Of a DNA stretch of 64,000 nucleotides, positions 28,023 through 40,518 are shown piece by piece; the first letter of the stretch is position 1; every line of letters begins with the position of its first letter. Source of the DNA: Vulcanimicrobiota bacterium (lineage in GTDB: Bacteria; Vulcanimicrobiota; Xenobia; Xenobiales; JADMJV01). Below the pieces are notes generated by a model. That model had not been told where the DNA came from and made no database searches. It worked only from the letters and a program-made list of their open reading frames with translations. Location of the stretch: the NCBI GenBank assembly GCA_050250895.1, contig JBFWNU010000003.1, positions 288,001-352,000 of the forward strand. The letters are read 5' to 3'. A program made the position numbers and the translations under genes.

Positions 28023-28915
28023 GGGAGGACCTCCTTGGCCACTTCTTCCAGCAGGTTGAGGGCGGCCAGCACCGTGTCTCGGCGCAGGCAAACCTCGTCC
28101 CCGAGCATGAAGGTTCGATAGCCCAGCCCGATCAGATAAGCGGCGTCGCTGATATCGGCCGCGCTGGGCACGAGGTCGCTGGCCAGCGAGCCAAACAGGC
28201 GGCTGGCCACGATGGCGGTCGGGTCGGCCTCGATGACGGTTTTGAGGGCGGCCAGAATCCGGTGGGGCCGCATCACCTCGACAAAGAGATCGCCGCGGGC
28301 GGCCATCAGGCGCCCGTGGCCGGCACCCTCGCGGCGGGCCAGTTCAAGACCGGCCAGGCTCTCGATCTTGAGCACCACCTCGGCCTCGGGCAAGCGCCCT
28401 CGCACGGCCGCCACGTCCTGGCCAGACTGGGCGAAGCTAAGCATCACCCGCCGCAGTCCTAGTTCGCGCATAGCAGCCAGATAGCTCTCGTCGGTCGGGG
28501 TGAGCAGCCCCTCGACTTCAAGACTGGGGTCGACAAGGTTGACCGACTCGCCCGGACCGACCAGTCGCCGTGGGCCATCGGCCAGGATGAGCCGGTCGCC
28601 ATCCACCGCCACCACTCTGGCTCGCTCGCGACCATCGTTGAAGTAGGCGTCGCAGGGCGTGTTCACCTGCAGGCGATGGCTGACCCTCACTTCGGTGAAA
28701 GGCGGAACGGCCGCTCCCACCACCCGCAACTGGCGCGCTTTGAGATCGACCCACAGTGGTTGCCCAAACCCCGCCAACCGCTCGAGCACGGGAGCGGGCG
28801 GCCCGGCCAGCGGCATGACCGTGTTCAGGCGCAAACCGCCGACCAGGGGATGGGCGGCCACTTCCGCCACGAAGTCGGCATAAGGCGGCACGGTGACGAT
28901 GGCCGAGAGATTCAT
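27986..28915 (-). CDS. Truncated pyruvate-kinase-like protein (barrel plus B domain only)
   Basis: RLN, DLKARQLR, LSF, KIE, MAARGDLFVE, DISD, MLGDE match PK barrel motifs; 309 aa, no C domain. Confidence 0.75.
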   Translation of the reverse strand: MNLSAIVTVPPYADFVAEVAAHPLVGGLRLNTVMPLAGPPAPVLERLAGFGQPLWVDLKARQLRVVGAAVPPFTEVRVSHRLQVNTPCDAYFNDGRERARVVAVDGDRLILADGPRRLVGPGESVNLVDPSLEVEGLLTPTDESYLAAMRELGLRRVMLSFAQSGQDVAAVRGRLPEAEVVLKIESLAGLELARREGAGHGRLMAARGDLFVEVMRPHRILAALKTVIEADPTAIVASRLFGSLASDLVPSAADISDAAYLIGLGYRTFMLGDEVCLRRDTVLAALNLLEEVAKEVLPCVSPSPRLIAV

Positions 28916-29814
28916 CAGGCTGTCCGTCCGGTGTCGCGCATGACGCGGGTGATGCGGCGCTCGATCTTGGCGATGGCCGCCTCTTCCTGGCGGGCCGACA
29001 TGTTGACCTTGAAGTCGCCGAAGTGTCCCCAATGGCGAGCGATCAGGCCCATCGCATAGTCGACCGCCCGGGGCTCGTCGTGAATCTGGATAATCTTTTG
29101 CTCACCCACGGCCTGGCTCCACTGCTTGTCGACCTTGTCGCCTTTGCGACCGGCTCGGCGCAAGAACCAGGTGTCCCAGGTGCGGGCCACCTGTTGCCAT
29201 GTCTTGATCGAGTCCTGGTTCTGAGACTCGCGAGCACCCAGGATGTCGGTCAACTCGCTGGCCTTGATCTTGGCATGCATGGTGGCGTCACCAAAGACGA
29301 TGAGGAAAGGCTTCTCGCCGGTCTTCTTGATGCTCACATGGTTGGCCAGCCACCAGGCGAAGAGGCCGTAGCTCTCGGGCTCGTCGCCGCCGCCGCCTTC
29401 GCCGTAGAGCGACTTGAGTTCGGTTTCTAGGGCGAAGCCTTTGGCAAAGCGGGTTACCTGCAAAGGCCAGCGGTCGCAGTGAGCGTCACCGATGGCGGCA
29501 AAGCAGATCTCGAGGTCGGGTCGATACTGAGAGAGGGTGTTGTAGACCAGCGGTAGGCGGTCAAAAATCTCGGCCGGCCACCCGGCCATCGAGCCGGTGA
29601 CATCGACGGCGATGACCAGCGGAGTCTTGGTCTTCGGAGCCAGATGCTTCTTGGGGTCGATGAGGCTCTCGTCAGGTCCCCGGTGGTTGTAAGTACGCGG
29701 GCCGCGCGAAGCAGCTTCGCGGGCGTCTTTGGCGCGCTCGGCCTTGCGAGCGGAGTCGAATCGATAGGCGCCCGGTCGGGCCCAGTCTTCCATAGAATCT
29801 CCCCAAGAATACAT
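28915..29814 (-). CDS. vWA-domain protein
   Basis: MIDAS-like IAVDVTGSM, GEGGGGDEPESY, FLIVFGD. Confidence 0.8.
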   Translation of the reverse strand: MYSWGDSMEDWARPGAYRFDSARKAERAKDAREAASRGPRTYNHRGPDESLIDPKKHLAPKTKTPLVIAVDVTGSMAGWPAEIFDRLPLVYNTLSQYRPDLEICFAAIGDAHCDRWPLQVTRFAKGFALETELKSLYGEGGGGDEPESYGLFAWWLANHVSIKKTGEKPFLIVFGDATMHAKIKASELTDILGARESQNQDSIKTWQQVARTWDTWFLRRAGRKGDKVDKQWSQAVGEQKIIQIHDEPRAVDYAMGLIARHWGHFGDFKVNMSARQEEAAIAKIERRITRVMRDTGRTA

Positions 29815-29824
29815 GGTAGCCTCC

Positions 29825-29870
29825 TAGGTGTAGTGTCTACACTTAATAATAGTGTATAGCAAACACTATT
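29825..29870. promoter_or_regulatory. Tandem palindromic operators with GT-N7-AC core (NrtR-like)
   Basis: TAGGTGT-AGTGTCT-ACACTTA (29825-29845) and perfect AATAGTGT-ATAGCAA-ACACTATT (29848-29870). Confidence 0.65.
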
Positions 29871-30591
29871 TCAAGAGGTGGCGTTCAAAAATCTTGAGGG
29901 GGTCGTCTTTGTCCCAGCGGGGACGGCGTTCTGGCTCCTTTCGGCTGAGACTGACCAAAAGCGCAAGCAGCGGCTCGGGCACGCCCTCGGGGAGGATGCG
30001 CCGCTCGATGTCACCACCCATGGCATAAAGAAGCGAGACGGCCAGCGAGTAGAGGTCGGACTCAGGTAGGGGAGGCGCGCCGGCGGCCACCTCGGGAGCC
30101 ACGAACAGGGGCGTGAAGCCGGCCGCGCTCGAGCCCCGGCGCGGCTTGACGGTGGAGACTCCGAAGTCGACCAGGACCACCCCATGCCGGTCGGGCTCGA
30201 GGAGGATGTTCTCGGGCTTGATGTCGTTGTGCACGATACCCCGATGGTGCAGCAGCCGCAGGGCTCGCAGCAGCCGCCCCAGGACCTGCACGGCCACGGC
30301 CGAATCGATGGGGAGCATGGCTTCCAGGGTGGCTCCTTCGACGAATCGCATGACCAGTGCCAGTCGGCCGTCATCGAGGCGAAACACCTCGCGCAAAGTA
30401 GGCAAGCTAGGATGGTGCAGGTCCCAGAGTATTCTGGCTTCGGCCAGAAACAGGTCGCTGTGGGCGGTCGTGTTGGCCACCTTGATGCAGGCGCGGGTCT
30501 TGAGCAACCGATGGACGGCCTCATAGGTGGTAGCAAATCCGCCCGCTCCCAGCTCGCGCACCAGGTCATAGTTGCCGAGCTTCGCTAGCAC
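29866..30591 (-). CDS. Stand-alone Ser/Thr protein kinase
   Basis: LGAGGFATTY, IK, HNDIKPENI, DFG, APE, SDLYSL. Confidence 0.9.
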   Translation of the reverse strand: MLAKLGNYDLVRELGAGGFATTYEAVHRLLKTRACIKVANTTAHSDLFLAEARILWDLHHPSLPTLREVFRLDDGRLALVMRFVEGATLEAMLPIDSAVAVQVLGRLLRALRLLHHRGIVHNDIKPENILLEPDRHGVVLVDFGVSTVKPRRGSSAAGFTPLFVAPEVAAGAPPLPESDLYSLAVSLLYAMGGDIERRILPEGVPEPLLALLVSLSRKEPERRPRWDKDDPLKIFERHLLK

Positions 30592-31109
30592 CCGAACTGC
30601 TCGCGATAGCGCCGGTCGAGACCGTTGTCGGTGAGATACTTTTCAATGCAACCGGGAACCAGATGCTGCCATGGCTCGCCAAGGAGCATGGCTTGGCGGA
30701 CCATGGTGGCGTTGATGGGTTGGCGCTGCTCCTCGGGCACCAGATGGACCGGGTGAACCACCTGATAGTCCTCCAGCAGCAGGCTGCGCACGTAGCCGTT
30801 GGCGGTGATGAACAGATCGAGGGGACCGAGCCGCTCCACCACCATCTGGCGCCAGCGTGGCCCGTGGCCAAGATCGGGAAACTCCTCCACCTCGAAGTCG
30901 TGACCGGCTAGCACGAGCTCGAGCATGCGCCTGGTTTCGGCCACCGTGAAAGGGTTGTCGCGGTCGTAGCGATTGCTGCTGCCGATGCCGATGACCACCT
31001 GGTCGGCGTAGTCGACCAGGGCCTGCAAGACAGCCTGATGGCCGAGGTGGACGGGCTTCCAGCGGGCGATCATGGCTAACCGCCCCACGTGGGCCGGAAG
31101 AATGTTCAT
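30585..31109 (-). CDS. NMN/NaMN adenylyltransferase (NadM-like)
   Basis: ARWKPVHLGH (HxGH), IGIGSSN...NPFT, INATMVR. Confidence 0.8.
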   Translation of the reverse strand: MNILPAHVGRLAMIARWKPVHLGHQAVLQALVDYADQVVIGIGSSNRYDRDNPFTVAETRRMLELVLAGHDFEVEEFPDLGHGPRWRQMVVERLGPLDLFITANGYVRSLLLEDYQVVHPVHLVPEEQRQPINATMVRQAMLLGEPWQHLVPGCIEKYLTDNGLDRRYREQFGC

Positions 31110-31112
31110 TGG

Positions 31113-31472
31113 CTACTTGTGGGCCTGGATGGTGACCTCGAAGTTGGCCTCACGCTCGGCCGTCAACACCACCGTATAGGTGCCCGCGCGCAGTGGCTTG
31201 AGCAGCAGTTTGCGATAGCCGTAGGGGTCGAGGCGGCCGCTGCCGGCCAGGTTGCCGTCGGGGTCGGTGACCTCGAAGTTGGCCGACTTTTGCGAACTTC
31301 TGAAATAGACCCACAGCTCTTGCCCAGGCGCGCCTTCGACCACGAAGACCTGCATCGACCCCGGCACCAGATGGCCCGTGAACGTGCCCCCGTCAGCCGG
31401 CACCGTGGTCGCCGTCTGGGCCATCGCGGCCAGGCTCAGTAGTAAGGATAGCAAAGTGAGTTGAAGTCGCAT
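31113..31472 (-). CDS. Small exported PPC-like beta-sandwich protein
   Basis: GAGG RBS, signal peptide, VTDPDG and AGTYTVVL motifs. Confidence 0.6.
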   Translation of the reverse strand: MRLQLTLLSLLLSLAAMAQTATTVPADGGTFTGHLVPGSMQVFVVEGAPGQELWVYFRSSQKSANFEVTDPDGNLAGSGRLDPYGYRKLLLKPLRAGTYTVVLTAEREANFEVTIQAHK

Positions 31473-31571
31473 GTTCGTGTCCTCTCGCCAGTAGTTTCCC
31501 ACCGATGCGCCCGCCAACCTGCACTTGCCGACGACCGGTCGCGGGTCGTGGCTCACCGGTTGCCTGCCCAC

Positions 31572-31587
31572 ACTTCCGCGCGGAAGT
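31572..31587. repeat. Solo REP-like palindrome ACTTCCGCGCGGAAGT
   Basis: Perfect 16-bp palindrome of the same family as the 46.6-47.8 kb array. Confidence 0.7.
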
Positions 31588-31802
31588 CAGGATGCGTTTC
31601 GAGGACTGGCGCGTTTGTGTCCTGGAAGTCTTGGACTGCAATCGCAAGCGATGGTCCTTCTGGCTCGTTCGAGCGGAGGCTGTGCAGGCATTGGTCGGGG
31701 GGGTCTGGCGCGGTCTACTGCGGCTGTCGACCCAGTTTCTTGTCCGTCCTCAGGCCCGTGGAGCCGTTCTATCGGTGCCATGGCCCAAAAAGAACCCTAG
31801 TT

Positions 31803-33386
31803 TCATGACGCTTCGCTGACCACCCCGTAGGCCCTCATGGAATGTAACCACCAGCGATCCCGCAAGAGCAACGAGAGCGCACAACCAACCCAGTGATGCC
31901 CTAACTCGTCGAAGCGACGGGGTGCATACTCGCTGTGTAGTCTCGCATTCATCCACCCGTCCTCACCTCGCCAGGTCTTCGAATAGTCGCTGAATGAACT
32001 TGACACGCACCCCTCAGCTATGCCTACTTGCAGCTCCTCTGGGGAGCGAACAGGAACCATCCGGAGTGGCACCACATCAGCAGCGTCAAATTCACGAACC
32101 GCAGCATCATAGAGGGAACGGAAACCCAATAAGGAGCAGCTATCAAGGATGGCTGCTGCCAGGACACTGTGGCTGGACTTCTCAATGCCATGATACTCGA
32201 CGCTGGCTCCAATTGACCGCCACATCAGATCTGTCGCGCTGGCGCGAACAGCAGACAGACCAAGACCATCGTCATCGTACGCGGTCCGAATCCAGTCCAC
32301 GACTGCCTCCAGCCAGGGCTCAATCCCTGTAATACCGAGCTCGTGACTCGCCAGGGCCACCACTAGAACCGTAGGCGCAAAGTCGTCAGAGATCGGTCGC
32401 GACACGGTAGGGAGGCCCAGCAGATAATTAAGAAACTCCCCAATCACGGCTCGTTCATCAGCAGTCCATAATCCGTTGCAGAGGGTCGACAATGCGAGAA
32501 CTTCGGCCATGTACAACAGCCTCGAACCCGCGGTGACGACCTCTAAGCAAGATAGGTCGCAAACGGCATACTTCCGCATCTCCGGTGAAACACCGGTCCA
32601 CCACTGCACCACAGGTCGAGCCAGGTGGCTGAGTTCTTGCTTCAGGAGAGCGAACATGAGTTCTGTATCCCCGCTGTCCAGACCATGTTCCTGCTGGGCC
32701 ACGACAGCCCGTACGAGGCCATAGAAGAGCCTAATCGCGTGAAGATACAGTTGACGACGGATCAAGTGGTCGCGCATCAGCGAGTATTCTAGCGTGCTCA
32801 ACCAGATGTTGTTGGAGCCGTCGCCAAGCCACTCCCGGGAGAAGACCTCAAGCTCGCTCAACCCGGTTTCCCCGGAACTGCACCGACTCAGCAGGTTGCC
32901 AAGAGTCGCCCAATCAGAATAACCCCCGAGGCAGGTTTCTGCCGTTAGATACTCCAGGAGGTTCTCCCGAGACCAGAAGGACAGATCCGGTAGGTTTCTT
33001 CGAGCGAGGGAATCCCGGTAACCTTGAGCAGTCACCGCCGCTTGACCCTTGAACCTTCCTGTGAAAACGGCCACGGCCTGCTTGCTCAGGTTGACGTCGA
33101 TGTTCGGGTGACCGATGGTCACAGTCAACATCTCCTCACACTGAGGTTGGAGTTCCTGCCGCCAGACGGTTGTTCCGACATCTCCCAGTTTGCTCTGGAA
33201 GAGGTATTGAACGGTCTCACCTTCGTCTTCCCGTTTAGCGATGAAATCCTTACCGAATTCATACCGGCCATGAGTGAACTGAATGTCGTAAAATCCCTGG
33301 GAGCGAAGCATTGCCAAAAAGGGAACATCGAATTCTCGCTCGGTTCCGAGTTGGTCCAGGAATTCGCTAACGGCGCTTTCGAGCAC
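31803..33386 (-). CDS. Mrr-like PD-(D/E)XK endonuclease with long helical C-terminal region
   Basis: EREF...LRSQGF...HGRYEFGKDFIA...FQSK (D...QxK); lower GC. Confidence 0.75.
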   Translation of the reverse strand: MLESAVSEFLDQLGTEREFDVPFLAMLRSQGFYDIQFTHGRYEFGKDFIAKREDEGETVQYLFQSKLGDVGTTVWRQELQPQCEEMLTVTIGHPNIDVNLSKQAVAVFTGRFKGQAAVTAQGYRDSLARRNLPDLSFWSRENLLEYLTAETCLGGYSDWATLGNLLSRCSSGETGLSELEVFSREWLGDGSNNIWLSTLEYSLMRDHLIRRQLYLHAIRLFYGLVRAVVAQQEHGLDSGDTELMFALLKQELSHLARPVVQWWTGVSPEMRKYAVCDLSCLEVVTAGSRLLYMAEVLALSTLCNGLWTADERAVIGEFLNYLLGLPTVSRPISDDFAPTVLVVALASHELGITGIEPWLEAVVDWIRTAYDDDGLGLSAVRASATDLMWRSIGASVEYHGIEKSSHSVLAAAILDSCSLLGFRSLYDAAVREFDAADVVPLRMVPVRSPEELQVGIAEGCVSSSFSDYSKTWRGEDGWMNARLHSEYAPRRFDELGHHWVGCALSLLLRDRWWLHSMRAYGVVSEAS

Positions 33387-34029
33387 GCCATTCCTCCCAT
33401 TTTCTCTCGATGATTGCCTCTAGACGCTCCTGCTGCTCGGGCGTCAGCGGAGGCAGTGGCTCGTCAATCCCGGGCCCGATGAGATGCAACTCAGTCTTGA
33501 TTGTTCCATTCTCGTGGAAGTCGATCCGAAGGCCATCCAACATGTCCAGGACCATCTCGTTGTCCAGTGGCCGTCCACCCTCAACAACCTGGCCGGTGGC
33601 CGTACAAGTCTCCTTCATGACCTCCATGACGTGGCGCTCGAGTGCCCTCGCGTTCTCTTCGGCCTGCGAACCGATCTGGACCGCAAAGGTGTCGTGATTC
33701 CCGGCTAACACGTCGTCGTTGGTGACGTTTAGGTCCCATCCAATCGCGACCGTCCCCGTCGCACTTTCCGATGTCTTGCCGGGCAGAACGTTCCTGATGA
33801 GCTGGTCCCGCTCCACGAATTGGATGTGCTTGAGAAGACTCGAGCTCTCCCTCTTGACAATCCTCATCATTTGGGAAACCGTGTCGTGGCCTGCTCGCTC
33901 ATAGTCCGGCAATCGAAAATTTCGCACGAAATGCTGGGCTGGAAGCGATATCACGGCTTGCGGACAGCACTCGCACTCGGCATTTGTAAGGGAAGCATCC
34001 GTGGCTCTATATGAGGATGGCGACGACAT
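33367..34029 (-). CDS. Hypothetical protein resembling a truncated HK97-fold capsid protein (true start possibly the GTG near 33927)
   Basis: VTNDDVLAGNHDTFAVQIGSQAEENARALERHVMEVM and LHLIGP recall capsid P/A-domain motifs; overlaps the downstream nuclease by 20 nt. Confidence 0.55.
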   Translation of the reverse strand: MSSPSSYRATDASLTNAECECCPQAVISLPAQHFVRNFRLPDYERAGHDTVSQMMRIVKRESSSLLKHIQFVERDQLIRNVLPGKTSESATGTVAIGWDLNVTNDDVLAGNHDTFAVQIGSQAEENARALERHVMEVMKETCTATGQVVEGGRPLDNEMVLDMLDGLRIDFHENGTIKTELHLIGPGIDEPLPPLTPEQQERLEAIIERKWEEWRARKRR

Positions 34030-34087
34030 GTTCTTGAGACTTATTCACTGACTCCCAAAGGGATTCCCCTCGAACAGTTGTCCGGGG

Positions 34088-35350
34088 CTAGCCCCGTCCC
34101 ATCCGTTCAAGCATCCACTGAATCAGTCGGCCATCACTGTTTTCTCCGGCGACGAAGCCCAGTTCTGGATCGATTGCCATCTGACACTGGGTCGTCAGCA
34201 ACTTTAGCAGATTTCCGTCGCGATATGCGAGGCGTTTCTCATTCAGTCCGGAGACGAGTTGGTCAACATCATACCCATGGCCGCTGATGAAGTTGACGAA
34301 ATCGGGAGCCGTCACGTCGGTCTCGCCAGCGACACACAGTTTGTGGACAACTACGTACTCGCAGATGTCGAGTATGGCCGGTTGCCAGGTCGCTTCCTGC
34401 TCGTCCCCGTCGCCAACCGTGGGTGTCTTTAGGACGCCCGTCAAATTCCATTGCGGTTCACCCGAGACCTCAGTGTAATGTCCCCTAATGAACGGGGCAA
34501 GGGGCTCGACGGAAAGCTCGCCCAAAGTTGGCACCACTTTCGTTTCGAAGCGGTAATCCAGTCTGGTGAACAGCTGCTCCAAGAGGATCAATAGTGGGTT
34601 GCCTGCGTATGAAGCGTATAATTCCCATACGTCCGGATCTTGAGAAACCGCAGCATACGGCATCCCGTCGAGCTTAACGAGGGAGCCGGCCGACGTGGCA
34701 ATCAAGTTCGGGAATACCAGTGGTCCGTAACCAAGCTCGGACTCAGTCTCTTGGACGAAGTCCGCGAAGCCTTTTCTGAGAGTGTCTTCGCTCTTGTACC
34801 CGTGGTATCCGAACACGACGCGGAGTGGGAATGCTGATTCGCAAACAATAGTGTGATGCACGCCTTGGAGGTGAATAGGGAGATTCTCGACTTCGGCAGC
34901 GGCGGGCAACGGCATCCCGGCGATATGCCTGAATGCATCATCAGCGAGCTCGGCTTTCAGATCGCGTTTCGGCGGGCCCAGCGCAACGACGCTCCTAAGC
35001 TTATCAAAAGAGTCCGTCAACTCCCTGGTGTAGAGATTCTTCTTAACCTCCAAAACGGCTATGACATCCTCAAGTCTATACTTTCGATGTTGTGTGCGTG
35101 GTATCTCGACACCAGGTCCCAACCCGATCAGGATGTCGATCTGCTTACTCTGCCGATCATCATTCTCTATGACGCCAGTTGCGACCGTGAGACTGGCCAA
35201 TTTTTTGGGCAGAGCCTTCTCAAGAATCTCTCGTGCTAGACCCTCGTACATGTCGCCGATGATGCCCGGATGGCCGATGTTCTGCGCATCGAGAAGCTCG
35301 GTCTCCTTCTTCAAGAGTGTCGTCAATATGTCTGCTATCCTTTGAACCAT
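34088..35350 (-). CDS. DUF6602-like PD-(D/E)XK nuclease-domain protein
   Basis: HPGIIGDMYE, SKQIDILI, AVLEVKKNL; lower GC. Confidence 0.7.
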   Translation of the reverse strand: MVQRIADILTTLLKKETELLDAQNIGHPGIIGDMYEGLAREILEKALPKKLASLTVATGVIENDDRQSKQIDILIGLGPGVEIPRTQHRKYRLEDVIAVLEVKKNLYTRELTDSFDKLRSVVALGPPKRDLKAELADDAFRHIAGMPLPAAAEVENLPIHLQGVHHTIVCESAFPLRVVFGYHGYKSEDTLRKGFADFVQETESELGYGPLVFPNLIATSAGSLVKLDGMPYAAVSQDPDVWELYASYAGNPLLILLEQLFTRLDYRFETKVVPTLGELSVEPLAPFIRGHYTEVSGEPQWNLTGVLKTPTVGDGDEQEATWQPAILDICEYVVVHKLCVAGETDVTAPDFVNFISGHGYDVDQLVSGLNEKRLAYRDGNLLKLLTTQCQMAIDPELGFVAGENSDGRLIQWMLERMGRG

Positions 35351-35535
35351 CCGCCTTCTCCATGGCGTCTCCCGTGGTCAAGAAGTTCGCTGAGTGACAA
35401 CATCCGGTCCTCCTAGCTCTTCATTGTGCGAGTCGTGGCATTGTGAGAGCATCGGACCTCCAACCACCACCACCGCATCCAGCACGGCGTTCCCTTATCC
35501 AGCGGGCACCACAACTTGCGCTTGGCGGGCTAAGC

Positions 35536-35553
35536 CCCCCCTTTTAAGGGGGG
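35536..35553. repeat. REP-like palindrome CCCCCCTTTTAAGGGGGG
   Basis: C6TT/AAG6 inverted repeat followed by a G-rich tail. Confidence 0.55.
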
Positions 35554-35937
35554 TAGGGGGCGTATCCTCAGCCAGGCGCCAGGTCGGCCGTGGCGCTGTG
35601 TGTCGTCGTCTTGGTCCCCGAGGGGTCCCCATCTCCGGGCAACGACGAGGTCAAATCTCGAACACAGCCTCAGCAAATGACCGTTTCGAAGGGTTTCTGA
35701 GCTAGTCGAGTGCGGTTGTCTAATCAAACCCTTAACATTGCGAAGGTTAAGGTCTGACAATATTTGGCGCGGTGCGTACTTCCAGCTGGAAGTGGGTTCA
35801 GTTCGTGAAGCAATCGTTTGCCGAATTGCCGCCGCCCGCTCCAAGCGAGCATGGCAAACTCGTTCGCCCGCCGCGCGGTGGAGCCGCCTCACCCGGCATA
35901 TCAGTGTTCTTTCAGGCTGTGGGACTAGGCTGGATCG

Positions 35938-36501
35938 GTGAGAATCGCAGCCAACATGACCGGCGGAACCCTCGAACGCGAGCGGGCGCAGCTGCAGCAG
36001 CGCATCGCCCAGCAAGACCAGCGCGAGGCCGAGAGCCGCGATGTGTTTGAGGCGAGCGTGCGCAAGTACGAGCGCACCGCCAAACTTCGCAGCGCCCTGC
36101 CGAAGATCGGGCTGGGGTGCACGATGGTCGGCGTGAGTCTGCCCACGGCCGGATTGAATCTAATCTCGGTCAACCGCACTCTGGGGTTCACCCTGGCCGG
36201 CATCGGTCTGGTGGGGCTGGCCGGCTGTGCCGCCTGCATCTTCGCCATCGAGAGGATGAAGTCGCACCGAACCCTGGATCATCTCGAGTCGGAGATTAGG
36301 GTCAAGAAGCTGGCTATGGAAGCGGTGGCTACCGAAAGACAGGGCCTGGCCCAACTCGAGGCCGAGCTGCATGCCAGATTCGACGAGCGCGACAAGCTGG
36401 CCAAGATGCTGGTCGGCGTCGACCGCGAGGTCAACGGGTTGCAAGACCACCCGACCTATGTCGAGGTTGGCGACCAGTCGGTCTCGAAGTCCACCGACTA
36501 G
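35938..36501 (+). CDS. Hypothetical two-TM coiled-coil protein
   Basis: Coiled coil, TM hairpin, coiled coil; stop overlaps the P450 start. Confidence 0.65.
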   Translation: MRIAANMTGGTLERERAQLQQRIAQQDQREAESRDVFEASVRKYERTAKLRSALPKIGLGCTMVGVSLPTAGLNLISVNRTLGFTLAGIGLVGLAGCAACIFAIERMKSHRTLDHLESEIRVKKLAMEAVATERQGLAQLEAELHARFDERDKLAKMLVGVDREVNGLQDHPTYVEVGDQSVSKSTD

Positions 36502-37862
36502 TGCTACCCCCTGGCCCGAAAGGGCTGCCGATTTTCGGCTCGCTGTTTGCGTTCACACGCGACATGCCGGGTTTTCTGGTGGGCCTCAACGAGAGCTACG
36601 GAAGCCTGGCTTCGTTTCGTGTTGGACGGCGGCCAGTCATCAACCTGGCCGAGCCCGAGTTGATCGGCAAGGTGTTGGTCGATGACGCTGATAGCTTCAT
36701 CAAGAGCTACGGCCTGCAGCGGGCCAAGGTGGTGTTGGGCGAGGGGTTGCTCACCAGTGAAGGAGAGTTCCATCTGCGGCAGCGGCGGCTCTCTTCCAAG
36801 GCCTTTCTGAAGAAGCGGATCGATGCCTATGCCGACACGATGGTGAGCTTCACGCAGCGGCATGCGGGCGAGTGGCGCGAGGGACAAACCATCGATCTGG
36901 CTCACCACATGATGGAACTGACCTTGCGCATCGTCTCGAAGACGCTGTTTGATACCGATTCCGCCACCGATGTGCGCACGGTGGGTGAGGCGATGACGGC
37001 TCTGCAGGAGCTGTTTCCGTGGCTTTTGACTCCCTACACTCGCGTGCTCGAGAAGCTGCCCGTGCCGGGCACGCTGCGCTTTCGCCGGGCCAGAGCGGGC
37101 TTGGATTCGGTCATCTATCGCATCCTGGCCGAACGGCGCGCTAATCCCGAGGACCGGGGCGATCTGTTGTCGATGCTGATGCTGGCCACCGATGACGAGG
37201 GCGACGGCTCGCGCATGAGTGATCTGCAATTGCGCGACGAGGTGCTGACCATCTTTCTGGCCGGCCACGAAACCACCGCCACTGCCCTGGCCTGGACCGG
37301 CTATCTGCTGTGTTTGCATCCGCATCACTACGCGCGGTTGCTGGCCGAGGTCGACGATGTGTTGCGAGGACGGGCTGCTCGAGCCGAAGATTACGGGCGC
37401 CTGGAATACACGCGCCAGGTGGTGGCCGAGTCGATGCGACTTTATCCGCCGGCCTGGGGGATGGGACGCATGGCGACCAGGGACTATCCTCTGGGGGACT
37501 ATGTTCTGCCGGCCGGCGGAACGGTGCTGGCCAGCCCCTTCGTGCTGGGGCGTGACGCCAGGTTTTTTCCCGAGCCGCTGGTCTTTGACCCCAGCCGTTT
37601 TTCGGCCGAGCAAGAGAAGGCTCGTCCGCGCCACGTGTACTTTCCGTTCGGGGCCGGCAAGCGCAAATGTCTGGGCGAGCGTTTCGCCTGGATGGAGGCG
37701 GTGCTGGTGTTGGCGACGCTTTCGCAGCAATGGCGATTTCACTACGATCGCGGCGCTCCGGTGCGCTACCGAGCGGCGGTCACGCTGCGGCCTCATCCCC
37801 AGGTTCCGGTGCGACTGTCCAGACGGGAAACAGTGTCCACTTCCTCGAACACCACCGCGTGA
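36501..37862 (+). CDS. Cytochrome P450
   Basis: [18 protein letters not shown] (ExxR), [12 protein letters not shown] heme motif. Confidence 0.97.
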
Positions 37863-38287
37863 GCGAGCTTCCTCAAGAACCCGATTTCGAGACCTTCGAG
37901 CGCCGGGCCCGGCTGGAGTACAACTTCCATCTGCTGGGTGAGGACCAGCTTAGCGCCACCCTCGATGAACTGGAACAGTCGGTCAACGCCTTTCGCGATT
38001 GCCTGGTCTCGCTCGATGAGCGGGCTGATGAACCGCTCACCTGTGCAGACCTCGCCAACAGCCTGCGAGCCTTCGCCCGCATGACGGGCCTGCGCGAGCA
38101 GATGCAGCGGCAACTCGAGCACAGCATCCTCGATGAAAGCCTGGCTCGCACTAAGCGCGATCTGGCCAAACTTCAGCTGATGGCTCGCTTGCTGCCCGAG
38201 GAAGAGCTGCTGCAATCCCTGCACGAACTCGACCCTGAGGTGAGGGCTTTCGTGGATAGTTATCGTCGCCGAAACAGCCCGGATTGA
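37859..38287 (+). CDS. Hypothetical helical protein
   Basis: GTGA overlap with the P450 stop; typical codon usage. Confidence 0.6.
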   Translation: MSELPQEPDFETFERRARLEYNFHLLGEDQLSATLDELEQSVNAFRDCLVSLDERADEPLTCADLANSLRAFARMTGLREQMQRQLEHSILDESLARTKRDLAKLQLMARLLPEEELLQSLHELDPEVRAFVDSYRRRNSPD

Positions 38288-38397
38288 CTGTCCACAACCA
38301 GGGTTGTGGTCGTGGAAAAAATTGCATGAAACTGGGATAACTACGGCAGTCATTCACAAGGAATCCACAGGCGAGTTTGGGAACCCAAAGGGATAAC
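38251..38397. promoter_or_regulatory. Cluster of degenerate DnaA-box-like 9-mers
   Basis: CGTGGATAG 38251, CTGTCCACA 38288, CGTGGAAAA 38311, TCATTCACA 38350, GAATCCACA 38361, plus two GGGATAAC. Confidence 0.4.
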
Positions 38398-38410
38398 ATC
38401 AGGGGGGCTC

Positions 38411-38716
38411 ATGACGGTCAACCCTGAAACGACTACCAGATCCCGTGGTGATCTCAGGAAGGTGACAGACTTGAACAAACAACAACTATCTATCAAACTG
38501 AACTCGCTCGACTCCAAATTCCTCTGCCCTCTGTGCCGGCATGAGGGCCATGCCAACGTGGGACCTCAGCTGTTCCTCTCGGAATGCTGGACCCCGGTGT
38601 GCCGGGAATGTGGAGACGAGCACGCCCCCGCGCTGTCGGCCCTGCTCGACCTCGCTGCTTGTGCGGCCGCGTTTTCGATCGAGGCCCGGGATCACGGAAC
38701 GGCTGTCGCAGTTTAA
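38411..38716 (+). CDS. Small Zn-finger-like protein (start possibly the TTG at 38471)
   Basis: CPLC...CREC; AGGAAGG before TTG; followed by a terminator. Confidence 0.6.
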   Translation: MTVNPETTTRSRGDLRKVTDLNKQQLSIKLNSLDSKFLCPLCRHEGHANVGPQLFLSECWTPVCRECGDEHAPALSALLDLAACAAAFSIEARDHGTAVAV

Positions 38717-38736
38717 GATCACCAAAGCTCAACTTG

Positions 38737-38770
38737 CAGCCCCGCCCTTCGGCGGGGCTCTTTTCTTTCT
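38737..38770 (+). terminator. Rho-independent terminator
   Basis: AGCCCCGCC-CTTC-GGCGGGGCT then CTTTTCTTT. Confidence 0.8.
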
Positions 38771-38805
38771 CGAGGAATTCGGTTGGTCAACACGAACCGT
38801 GGGGA

Positions 38806-40518
38806 ATGTCGACCGGCGACTTGCTCAAGAATCCCTATGTGTGCGGACACCCGGTCACGGGCCAGGAGTTCTTTGGTCGTCGTGACGAGTTGAGTCGGCT
38901 GGTCAGCCAGATTGAGCGTGGCGGACACTACTGCATCCTGGGCCCGGCCAAGGTGGGCAAAACCTCGCTCCTTCAAGCCCTGGCCAAGAGCGATTTAGGC
39001 GATAACTACCTTTTCTGCTATTGCCGCCTGCGCAGCGACGGGGCCAGTCTGGGTGAAGAGATCGAGTCGGCGCTGCGGGCCGCTTTGCGAGAGCGCGCAC
39101 GACGGCAAGAAGGCAGCTCGACGGGTCTGCAGAGCGTGCTCGAAGCGGTCGACCGCATGGACCCTGAAGGCACGGTGCGCAAAGCCGCGGGGCAGGCTTT
39201 CGGCCGGCTTTTTCAGGGAGTGAAGAAGGCTCTCGACCTGCCCCAGACGCCAGCCGAGAGCGACCCCGAGGGGTTGGGCCAGTTGCGTCGCACCTTGGCC
39301 AGGCTCAAAGCCCAGGACCTGCGCCCGGTGATTTTGCTCGACGACGCCGAGCGCCTGTTGCGGGCCCGTCCCGAAGAGCCGGCTTATCGCCGACTGCTCG
39401 AGGCCATCTTCGATGAGCGGTTGGCGAGTTTCGCCCTCACCCTCGGCCTGAGGCACCGCGACCTGGTGCTCAATTTACCCGAGACCTTGAGAATGCGGCT
39501 CGGTGCACTGGCGACCTCCGAGGCTCGCTCTCTGTTCGTGCAGCCGGCCGCGACGCTAGAAGTGGTGTTCACCGACGAGTGGGTCGAGGCCGGCCTGAAA
39601 TATGTGGGCTCGCATCCTTATCTGGTGCAGACCTACGCGTTTCATCTGTTTTCCAGACTGCAGAGCGAACAGCCTGATCGTCAACGTCTCGAGCGCGAGG
39701 TTCGAGAAGCTTGTGGGCCGATTCTCGAGGAGACCATTCAAGAGTTGGCTCCGGCCGAGGCCCAATGGTTGAGAACCCACTGGACCGACCCTTCGCCGGC
39801 CCAGGGTGAAGAGACGCTGGCCCTCAAGACGCTGGGAATTCTCGACGCGGAGGGCAAGCTGGTGCCGGTGCTGGCCGACTTCCTCAAACGTCGCTGGGAC
39901 CAGCCGGCTTCCGAGGCTACTCCGACCCAGGCAGTCATCGAGAAGACCACAGAGCGCACTCTGCTCGAGGTGATCGAGGAGCGCATGCGACTCGACACTT
40001 ATCTGCGCGAGCGCTTTACGCACGTGGCTACCTTCGTGGACATCGACGTGGTGGGCTCGACTCAACTCAAGGTTGGTGAGGACGAGTTCGGCGTCATCTA
40101 TTCCTTCGAAGAGTTTCACAAGTGGCAGAAAGAGAAGATCGAGGGCGGAGGGGGTCGCCTGCTCAACGCCATCGGTGACGAAACGATGAGCATGTTCGAC
40201 GAGCCCGAGCAGGCCCTGACGGTGCTGCGCGAGATGCTCGACGATCTGCCCCGCTTCAACGCCAGCGAGCGCAATCGACTCAAAGGCGACTTCACCTTTC
40301 GGGCCGGGGTGCATCTGGGCGAGGTGATTCGCGACACCACCATCGAGAAGGCGTATTCCCATGTGCTGGACCTGGCCGGGCATCTGCAGAAGCTAGCGCC
40401 CAATGGCTCGGTGGCCGTCTCGCAACTGGTCTATGAGGCGCTGGGCAAACCCGACTATCTCGAGCCGTGGCAGTTCGCCGAACGAGATGGGATCATGACC
40501 TTTCGACTGAAAGCCTAG
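38806..40518 (+). CDS. STAND-like P-loop ATPase fused to a class III nucleotidyl cyclase domain
   Basis: NPYVCGHPV..EFFGRRDEL, Walker A GPAKVGKT, Walker B ILLDD, GSHPYLVQ; cyclase DIDVVGST, IGD, FRAGVHLG. Confidence 0.8.
   Translation: MSTGDLLKNPYVCGHPVTGQEFFGRRDELSRLVSQIERGGHYCILGPAKVGKTSLLQALAKSDLGDNYLFCYCRLRSDGASLGEEIESALRAALRERARRQEGSSTGLQSVLEAVDRMDPEGTVRKAAGQAFGRLFQGVKKALDLPQTPAESDPEGLGQLRRTLARLKAQDLRPVILLDDAERLLRARPEEPAYRRLLEAIFDERLASFALTLGLRHRDLVLNLPETLRMRLGALATSEARSLFVQPAATLEVVFTDEWVEAGLKYVGSHPYLVQTYAFHLFSRLQSEQPDRQRLEREVREACGPILEETIQELAPAEAQWLRTHWTDPSPAQGEETLALKTLGILDAEGKLVPVLADFLKRRWDQPASEATPTQAVIEKTTERTLLEVIEERMRLDTYLRERFTHVATFVDIDVVGSTQLKVGEDEFGVIYSFEEFHKWQKEKIEGGGGRLLNAIGDETMSMFDEPEQALTVLREMLDDLPRFNASERNRLKGDFTFRAGVHLGEVIRDTTIEKAYSHVLDLAGHLQKLAPNGSVAVSQLVYEALGKPDYLEPWQFAERDGIMTFRLKA

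Follow-up and report, generated by a model that had tools for sequence, protein, structure and literature searches.

A conserved two-gene module of a FokI/Mrr-type nuclease and a partner protein with capsid-like features in a Vulcanimicrobiota genome

The window analyzed here, a stretch of 64,000 nucleotides from a Vulcanimicrobiota bacterium (assembly GCA_050250895.1, contig JBFWNU010000003.1, positions 288,001 to 352,000 of the forward strand), carries two overlapping genes on its minus strand, an upstream gene for a small protein and a downstream gene for a large one. Here we show that these two genes are a strictly conserved two-gene unit. We propose that the pair forms a nuclease module complete in itself and is a candidate system of defence against phages or mobile elements, a proposal for which we see an even balance of being right or wrong. 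The large protein contains a nuclease domain of the PD-(D/E)XK fold, whereas the small protein, denoted the partner, is predicted to bind the large one and gives recurrent, sub-threshold signals of likeness to HK97-fold capsid proteins. The features of the pair, with coordinates in the window, are as follows.

33367-34029, minus strand: small gene, an open reading frame (ORF) of 220 aa with an ATG start at 34029; partner subunit
31803-33386, minus strand: large gene, an ORF of 527 aa with a GTG start; nuclease subunit
33393-33398, minus strand: GGGAGG Shine-Dalgarno sequence, read from the sequence, inside the small gene and 6 nt ahead of the large-gene GTG
32928-33386, minus strand: nuclease domain (large protein, residues 1-153), FokI/Mrr-type PD-(D/E)XK fold carrying E16, E43, D47, Q60 and Q64-x-K66
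31806-32927, minus strand: helical domain (large protein, residues 154-527), the predicted docking site of the small subunit
33844-33918, minus strand: N-terminal helix (small protein, residues 38-62), the putative docking element, with an F-x-L-P-E-Y type motif and a nearly invariant Y43
33721-33792, minus strand: beta-hairpin region (small protein, residues 80-103), the most variable in the family
33463-33747, minus strand: capsid-like core (small protein, residues 95-189), comprising a strand, a short helix, a 32-residue helix, a conserved Gly-rich loop, a helix and a strand
33370-33441, minus strand: basic C-terminal helix (small protein, residues 197-220), with conserved K210, A216 and R219, outside the modelled interface

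Conservation and distribution of the gene pair

The two genes share positions 33367-33386, an overlap of 20 nt, and lie in a patch of lower GC content (0.55-0.57 across 32000-35000 and 0.52 in 35000-35499, compared with 0.61-0.68 in most of the flanking 500-bp windows). The first-pass annotation of this stretch had described two lower-GC genes overlapping by 20 nt, and the ORFs, the GC profile and the peptides quoted there, which are found in the 220-aa translation, all bear this description out. Because the GGGAGG sequence precedes the large-gene GTG inside the small gene, the two genes are probably translationally coupled. Promoter and terminator scans at the pair gave nothing better than shuffled sequences, and no tRNA genes, which are possible integration-site markers, were found in the window.

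Both ORFs appear to be real genes rather than chance reading frames, because relatives at E<=1e-3 were found for each of them: 98 for the large protein and 264 representatives for the small one. The relatives of the small protein, mostly 190-220 aa long and aligned from residue ~38, emerged from a full HMMER scan; a word-based homologue search returned only the protein itself, and it has no family in Pfam, PADLOC, NCBIfam or PHROGs. The public gene call of the small protein, 167 aa starting at M54, appears to be too short, because the family is conserved from residue 38, opening with the F-x-L-P-E-Y type motif. The true start is either the ATG at 34029 or a GTG at codon 35 (33925-33927), the latter corresponding to a protein of about 186 aa.

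A scan for the large family, with one genome taken per species, yielded 80 loci from about ten phyla, among which Acidobacteriota, Actinomycetota, Chloroflexota, Phycisphaerae, Verrucomicrobiia, Nitrospira, Myxococcota, Gemmatimonadaceae, Bacillus/Paenibacillus and proteobacteria are represented. In 78 of the 80 loci, the large gene is immediately preceded by a small-family ORF that is on the same strand and overlaps its start, and in the remaining two, the large gene begins at a contig edge; the co-occurrence by which the first-pass annotation proposed to check the pair is thus evident. The overlap is 32 nt long in 42 of the 54 loci with full flanks. The pairwise distances of one protein are strongly correlated with those of the other (r=0.925 over 61 loci, a value reached in none of 500 permutations), which fits co-inheritance of the pair, even if shared ancestry alone could also yield such a value. 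No third conserved gene was found, the 136 nearest neighbours being heterogeneous.

Two ORFs take the place of an undivided large gene in five loci (L045, L061, L068, L074 and L075). The halves are ~1 kb apart in L075, where a second small-family fragment is located upstream. These split genes may be decaying copies, products of an insertion or assembly errors in metagenome-assembled genomes.

The pair was not found in the 15 other genomes of the same taxonomic family and was found in 1 of 72,556 plasmid records. Relatives of the large protein were detected neither in IMG/VR nor in 50,697 phage records, and a tblastn search of the latter with the small protein gave nothing better than E 0.2.

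The nuclease subunit and its predicted complex with the partner

In the AlphaFold2 (AF2) model, the large protein (predicted local distance difference test score, pLDDT, 89; predicted template modelling score, pTM, 0.90) consists of an alpha/beta domain at residues 1-153 and helices at residues 154-525. The first of these is closest in fold to nuclease domains found in restriction enzymes of type IIS, type IV and ISP (FokI, BspD6I, LlaBIII, MspJI and AspBHI), and it displays both the restriction-endonuclease-like fold and catalytic residues of the D...(E/Q)xK kind. The D...QxK motif consists of D47, Q64 and K66, which, together with E16, E43 and Q60, are invariant in all 160 aligned family members; because of this invariance, the site can be considered to be under selection. 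As modelled, the large protein thus has an intact Mrr/FokI-type PD-(D/E)XK nuclease domain, of predicted activity, followed by a helical domain. The first-pass annotation, which had read an N-terminal D...QxK nuclease and a helical region of ~370 aa from the letters, is confirmed by the fold matches, the invariant catalytic residues and the modelled helices.

The Pfam Mrr_cat match is below threshold (E 0.037, 14.6 bits against a cut-off of 21); a search of PDB sequences with the large-protein profile returned topoisomerase V at E 0.24 or weaker; and for the helical domain, alpha/alpha toroids and solenoids were matched only weakly. The sole PADLOC match of the window's large protein is OloB of the Olokun system (E 2.8e-9, residues 6-147 aligned with profile positions 5-152 of 556). 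OloB was matched by 26 of 31 large-family members, with a best E of 6.4e-18, and no other PADLOC family was matched.

The AF2 model of the small protein (pLDDT 85.8, pTM 0.70, with low confidence for residues 1-30) contains a helix at 41-62, a hairpin with strands at 80-82 and 89-91, a short helix at 104-109, a 32-residue helix at 113-144, a helix at 157-166 followed by short strands, and the basic helix at 197-219. The most conserved parts of the family are the Gly-rich loop at 145-156 and the C-terminal helix, whereas mean entropy peaks in the hairpin region, at 3.26 bits, and insertions are concentrated there after residues 84 and 87.

When the small and large proteins were modelled together, the interface score ipSAE was 0.86, compared with 0.00 for the best of three controls. 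The pass mark for such models is reached by 58 of 80 solved complexes and by 2 of 110 mismatched pairs; these counts apply here only approximately, because our own alignments were supplied for the model. At least 80% of the contacts agree between runs, and the pLDDT of the partner is at least 62. The modelled interface involves residues 31-58 and 100-120 of the small protein and residues 169-176, 209-215, 258-293, 325-332 and 383-398 of the large one, all of the latter in the helical domain. The lowest-error contacts are those of small-protein residues 31-58, and both sides of the interface include conserved residues, namely Y43 of the small protein and P331, S333, D334 and G393 of the large one. 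The N-terminal helix of the small protein is therefore predicted, from these models, to dock on the helical domain of the nuclease, while the nuclease domain with its active site, the variable hairpin and the basic C-terminal helix lie outside the interface. It is unlikely that the model reproduces a remembered complex, because neither family has a solved relative detectable by sequence. The binding that the first pass had proposed to examine by multimer modelling is thus predicted.

A tandem pair of small-family domains, ~400 aa in all, is encoded upstream of the nuclease in L057 (4833-6032; protein P0106) and is also present in P0151. Because the domains are duplicated in tandem in these relatives, we infer that the small protein may act as a dimer.

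The arrangement of the pair resembles that of toxin-antitoxin or abortive-infection modules, in which case the large nuclease would be the toxin and the small protein the antitoxin, whose loss or titration would free the nuclease to degrade cellular and phage DNA. The small gene lies upstream and the large gene downstream, with overlap and translational coupling; a tight complex is predicted; the distribution is patchy and island-like; and the winged helix-turn-helix (wHTH) domain of the antitoxin-type AbiEi_4 family on one homologue and HTH_20 on another are reminiscent of autoregulating antitoxins. However, the modelled partner contacts the helical domain alone rather than the nuclease domain or its active site, it is large and well folded (by the pLDDT given above) for a labile antitoxin, and addiction modules are usually common on plasmids, where this pair is nearly absent. 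We consider this explanation quite unlikely.

Domains fused N-terminally to the partner in some homologues bear on a different possibility. These are EVE in P0105 (E 2.3e-5), the AbiEi_4 wHTH in P0100 (E 5.4e-9) and HTH_20 in P0115 (E 5.5e-11); all three proteins are representatives from a metagenome protein library and may be true fusions or merged gene calls. Accordingly, the pair could be a two-subunit restriction-type enzyme that senses DNA, with the partner as a DNA-recognition or targeting subunit that brings foreign or modified DNA to the nuclease by means of the basic helix and, in some lineages, an added HTH domain or EVE modified-base reader, the capsid likeness being irrelevant or historical. 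The similarity of the nuclease domain to those of type IIS, type IV and ISP restriction enzymes, the fusions themselves, the conserved Arg/Lys-rich C-terminal helix that is free in the complex model, and the NCBI annotation of a Rhodococcus homologue as 'restriction endonuclease' all speak for such a role. In addition, according to the accessible text of the report on Olokun, that system cuts some phage DNAs in vitro but not E. coli genomic or plasmid DNA (10.1101/2025.07.10.664194). On the other hand, searches with the unfused partner revealed no DNA-binding fold, the pair has no methyltransferase as a conserved neighbour, the fusions may be merged gene calls, and the recurrent capsid-type signals described below would be left unexplained. 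On balance, we regard DNA sensing of this kind as possible and somewhat unlikely.

Resemblance of the partner to HK97-fold capsid proteins

The first-pass annotation had drawn, by eye, a parallel between the small protein and HK97-fold capsids. Capsid signals of several kinds were detected; each test falls below significance on its own, and all kinds point to the Mu gpT / Phage_capsid_4 type. In a Foldseek search of the BFVD with the small-protein model, capsid proteins occupy ranks 1, 2 and 6 (E 0.49-3.0, TM scores 0.26-0.33), whereas the PDB yielded nothing at E<=0.001, the best match being prefoldin at E 5.2; the Foldseek check proposed for this ORF thus produced capsid leads among viral models only. 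VIA-align gave encapsulins and a SaPI procapsid as its leads. A search of PDB sequences with the small-family profile gave two chance-level matches alone (E 0.68 and 1.5).

Profile searches were carried out across the small family. In a Pfam scan of 81 members, SU10_MCP was the most frequent family, matched by three members with a best E of 0.0099, and Phage_capsid_4 was matched by one (E 0.091); a further homologue, P0136, matched Phage_capsid_3 with an E of 0.0075 and 15.7 bits, short of the cut-off of 23. None of the Pfam capsid models reached its gathering score, and the window's own small protein has no capsid match. 'Major head protein' families of PHROGs were matched by three members. 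By ESM Atlas features, every named neighbour past the family's own clusters belongs to a Mu-like gpT / Phage_capsid_4 cluster, at 0.82-0.84, a range that shuffled proteins reach a third of the time and that is accordingly a lead only.

The most direct comparison was made with hhalign, using trimmed alignments for all comparisons with capsid profiles. The small-family profile (199 sequences) aligned with the Mu gpT-type profile (203 sequences) over residues 40-140, matched to gpT 23-123, with a score of 24.8 (P 0.0039), and a second, colinear alignment joined residues 152-188 to gpT 230-269 with a score of 23.8 (P 0.0056). Reversed controls scored 13.1 and 12.7. In 150 block shuffles (mean 13.4, standard deviation 2.5), the best score was reached once and two colinear matches were never obtained; in column shuffles, 1 of 40 equalled the best score. 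Against a profile of five Phage_capsid_4 proteins from the same phylum, residues 95-189 aligned with a score of 22.6 (P 0.0096; reversed control 14.0), and the two capsid profiles align the same residues of the small protein in the same register. The scores against capsid profiles are 4-5 standard deviations above those of the shuffled controls. As a yardstick, Phage_capsid and Phage_capsid_4 score 22.1 against each other by the same method, compared with 22.6-24.8 for the small family. A separate hhalign implementation gave P 0.018 and a probability of 2.6%, and the hhalign probabilities for capsids overall are 2.6-8.6%. One run with a probability of 99% was discarded, because its reversed control also reached 99%, and is attributed to the Arg-rich tail and the ragged ends of the ORFs. 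The parallel drawn in the first pass therefore holds insofar as hhalign aligns the very segments that it named (the spine helix, the strand that precedes it and the A-domain helix-strand), but each test remains below threshold.

The resemblance could be due to chance or convergence, the small protein being an unrelated alpha/beta adaptor whose hairpin and long helix mimic a portion of the HK97 fold; a nuclease complex of the two proteins would be compatible with this reading, to which we give somewhat less than an even chance. No test is significant on its own, the ESM features lie in the range of shuffled proteins, and shuffled profiles occasionally reach the observed hhalign score. Furthermore, a profile of four HK97-type (PF05065) capsid proteins gave no signal (P 0.12), in a test that was underpowered, given that the gpT-type profile also failed against the same four sequences (P 0.68). 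Chance does not readily account, however, for the fact that a 3Di search, distance-based structure alignment, hidden Markov model matches, language-model features and profile-profile alignment all select the same protein class from very large libraries, nor for the agreement in register between two separately built capsid profiles or the lack of two colinear matches in any of the 150 shuffles.

Descent of the partner core from a capsid protein of the Mu gpT / Phage_capsid_4 type is, in our assessment, probable at slightly better than even, with the hairpin, the spine helix and the first A-domain helix-strand kept and the rest lost. The order of elements shared with these capsids (Mu gpT / Phage_capsid_4; PF10124, PF25209) is hairpin, short helix, long helix and helix-strand. 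The small protein differs from them in its length, ~190 aa compared with ~300-340 aa, in the replacement of the C-terminal third by a Pro-rich linker and the basic helix, and in the lack of head-morphogenesis neighbours. Portal, terminase and protease families do not figure among the 25 that are most common in the 136 nearest neighbours, and PF25209 and PF05065 have no match in the window's own genome. In agreement with the first pass, no other phage genes were found among the 13 ORFs that were scanned in the region from 26.5 to 40.5 kb. With no head-gene context and no full fold, the small protein is not a capsid gene product in the functional sense.

Genomic context, relation to known systems and possible function

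The only genome of the same genus has a syntenic site (G088:C296) that lacks the segment at ~31.1-38.4 kb of the window. Both flanks of window positions 31081-38457 align with this site at ~67% identity, and ~1.3 kb are found there in place of the ~7.4 kb of the window; the whole stretch 31081-38457, including a P450 gene at 36501-37862, is thus a variable segment. The lower GC content, patchy presence and variable neighbours of the pair suggest that it is accessory or mobile in character. Among the 136 neighbours in related loci, which were tallied without a matched control set, are PDC-S39 (two), PDC-S68 (two), PDC-S01, JetD, Drt3a, mad2/3, TrwC relaxases (two) and IS110 transposases (two). 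On a Rhodococcus megaplasmid, the pair lies among genes for an ATP-dependent endonuclease, an exonuclease-domain protein and a DEAD/DEAH helicase.

The defence role that we propose for the module is suggested by the relationship of the nuclease to OloB and to restriction and defence nucleases, along with the lower GC content, the patchy distribution, the location in a variable segment and the defence-type neighbours, and further by the DUF6602/NucC-like nuclease and the nSTAND1 NTPase that flank the pair in the window itself. The name and origin of Olokun are reportedly due to Millman et al. 2022. The accessible text of a more recent report describes Olokun as a PD-(D/E)XK defence nuclease complex (bioRxiv 10.1101/2025.07.10.664194). 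The module resembles Olokun in being a two-gene operon built around a PD-(D/E)XK nuclease, in that the large family matches OloB alone in PADLOC, and, as far as the same text goes, in that OloA is modelled on the helical domain of OloB (10.1101/2025.07.10.664194), as the partner is here on the large protein. The two differ in the partner, which here is ~190 aa long and belongs to another family, whereas OloA is large and adaptin-like. OloA models matched none of 81 small-family members at E<=0.1, and OloA is not among the top 25 families of the 136 neighbours. By sequence, the nuclease subunit thus appears to be a distant relative of OloB, in a pair that is set apart from Olokun by its partner. 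The novelty claimed in the first pass stands for the pair as a whole, which corresponds to no system in PADLOC-DB v2, but has to be qualified for the nuclease, given its distant relationship to a component of a named system. The pair was not found described in the literature on HK97-like or capsid-derived proteins in defence, although supplementary lists of predicted systems may contain it.

The nuclease fold and the D...QxK signature are shared with Mrr, MspJI and FokI-type restriction nucleases; however, the large protein lacks a fused DNA-recognition domain and has instead the ~370-aa helical domain and a separate obligatory partner. The pair does not belong to the AbiE-type toxin-antitoxin systems: the AbiEi_4 wHTH is found on one distant homologue (P0100) only, and the downstream protein is a nuclease rather than the AbiEii nucleotidyltransferase toxin. 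Ccm of the phage satellite SaPIbov5, by the accessible part of its description (PMC8569155), is homologous to capsid proteins over its full length, co-assembles into shells and is not paired with a nuclease. CapRel-type capsid-sensing defences (bioRxiv 10.1101/2022.05.30.493996) would respond to the same cue, a phage capsid protein, if the decoy idea outlined below is right; compared by their description in the accessible text, they differ in that the sensor is not capsid-derived and the effector is not this nuclease.

If the pair is a defence module, the small protein would serve as its sensing or regulatory subunit. The free surfaces of the partner would encounter a cue of infection, which could be foreign DNA or a phage protein of the head or its assembly, and this encounter would license two nuclease domains to pair and cut DNA in a FokI-like manner. 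FokI-type nuclease domains cut as dimers, and a dimeric partner would suit domains that cut as pairs. The basic helix and the EVE, AbiEi_4 and HTH_20 fusions favour DNA or regulation as the cue, whereas the probable capsid origin and the hypervariability of the hairpin speak for a phage structural protein. In the most specific version, the partner is a capsid decoy: a domesticated half of a Mu-type capsid protein recognises phage assembly partners (capsid protein, scaffold, protease or portal), with the hairpin as the specificity surface, whereupon two FokI-type domains join and cut. We consider this version improbable.

Several points weigh against the proposed reading. The OloB match of the window's protein covers the nuclease domain alone, and such domains also occur outside defence. 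The defence-neighbour counts come without a matched control, and many neighbours are housekeeping genes (glutamate synthase, ATP synthase, SmpB). The pair is rare on plasmids and was not found in the phage records or IMG/VR. On the capsid side, one block shuffle and one column shuffle equal the best hhalign score, the PF05065 comparison gave no signal, and the partner has about half of the HK97 fold, which makes co-assembly with real capsids speculative. Finally, the AbiEi_4, HTH_20 and EVE fusions speak for a role in DNA binding or regulation and not in the sensing of proteins.

Further genes of interest are located close to the pair:

34088-35350, minus strand: DUF6602/NucC-like gene, 420 aa, with an N-terminal DUF6602 (Pfam E 2.9e-16) and PADLOC matches to PD_DExK (1.4e-15) and NucC (5.5e-8)

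This gene shares the strand and the low-GC patch of the pair and is separated from it by 58 nt on the upstream side. It was considered as a third component and rejected, being absent from all 80 related loci; because it is not beside the pair in any of them, it is probably a separate, single-gene candidate defence nuclease. On the opposite strand, positions 38584-40518 encode a 644-aa protein with matches to AAA_22, AAA_16 and the nSTAND1 NTPase and a C-terminal portion of ~200 aa without a family, which may be a further immune-type STAND protein a few kb from the pair. On the other side, at 28915-30591 on the minus strand, a 299-aa ORF without a Pfam family overlaps a pyruvate-kinase-barrel-like gene and adjoins a gene for a 241-aa Ser/Thr kinase; these genes sit in a cluster for NAD metabolism (NadE and a cytidylyltransferase-like protein).

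Should the capsid link fail, the strict pairing and the confident interface model would still define a new family of regulatory partners of FokI/Mrr-type nucleases. If the partner is a capsid remnant, it would exemplify, as few bacterial cases do, the recruitment of a viral structural gene to immunity and would open a direct and testable way to study the coupling of a nuclease effector to the sensing of virion assembly; were the decoy version true, the immune sensor would be made from the very viral protein that it detects. If the module protects against phages, it would be a widespread two-gene system, present in soil Acidobacteriota, Actinomycetota and Bacillus/Paenibacillus and across some ten phyla, with a nuclease that ties it to the poorly understood Olokun.

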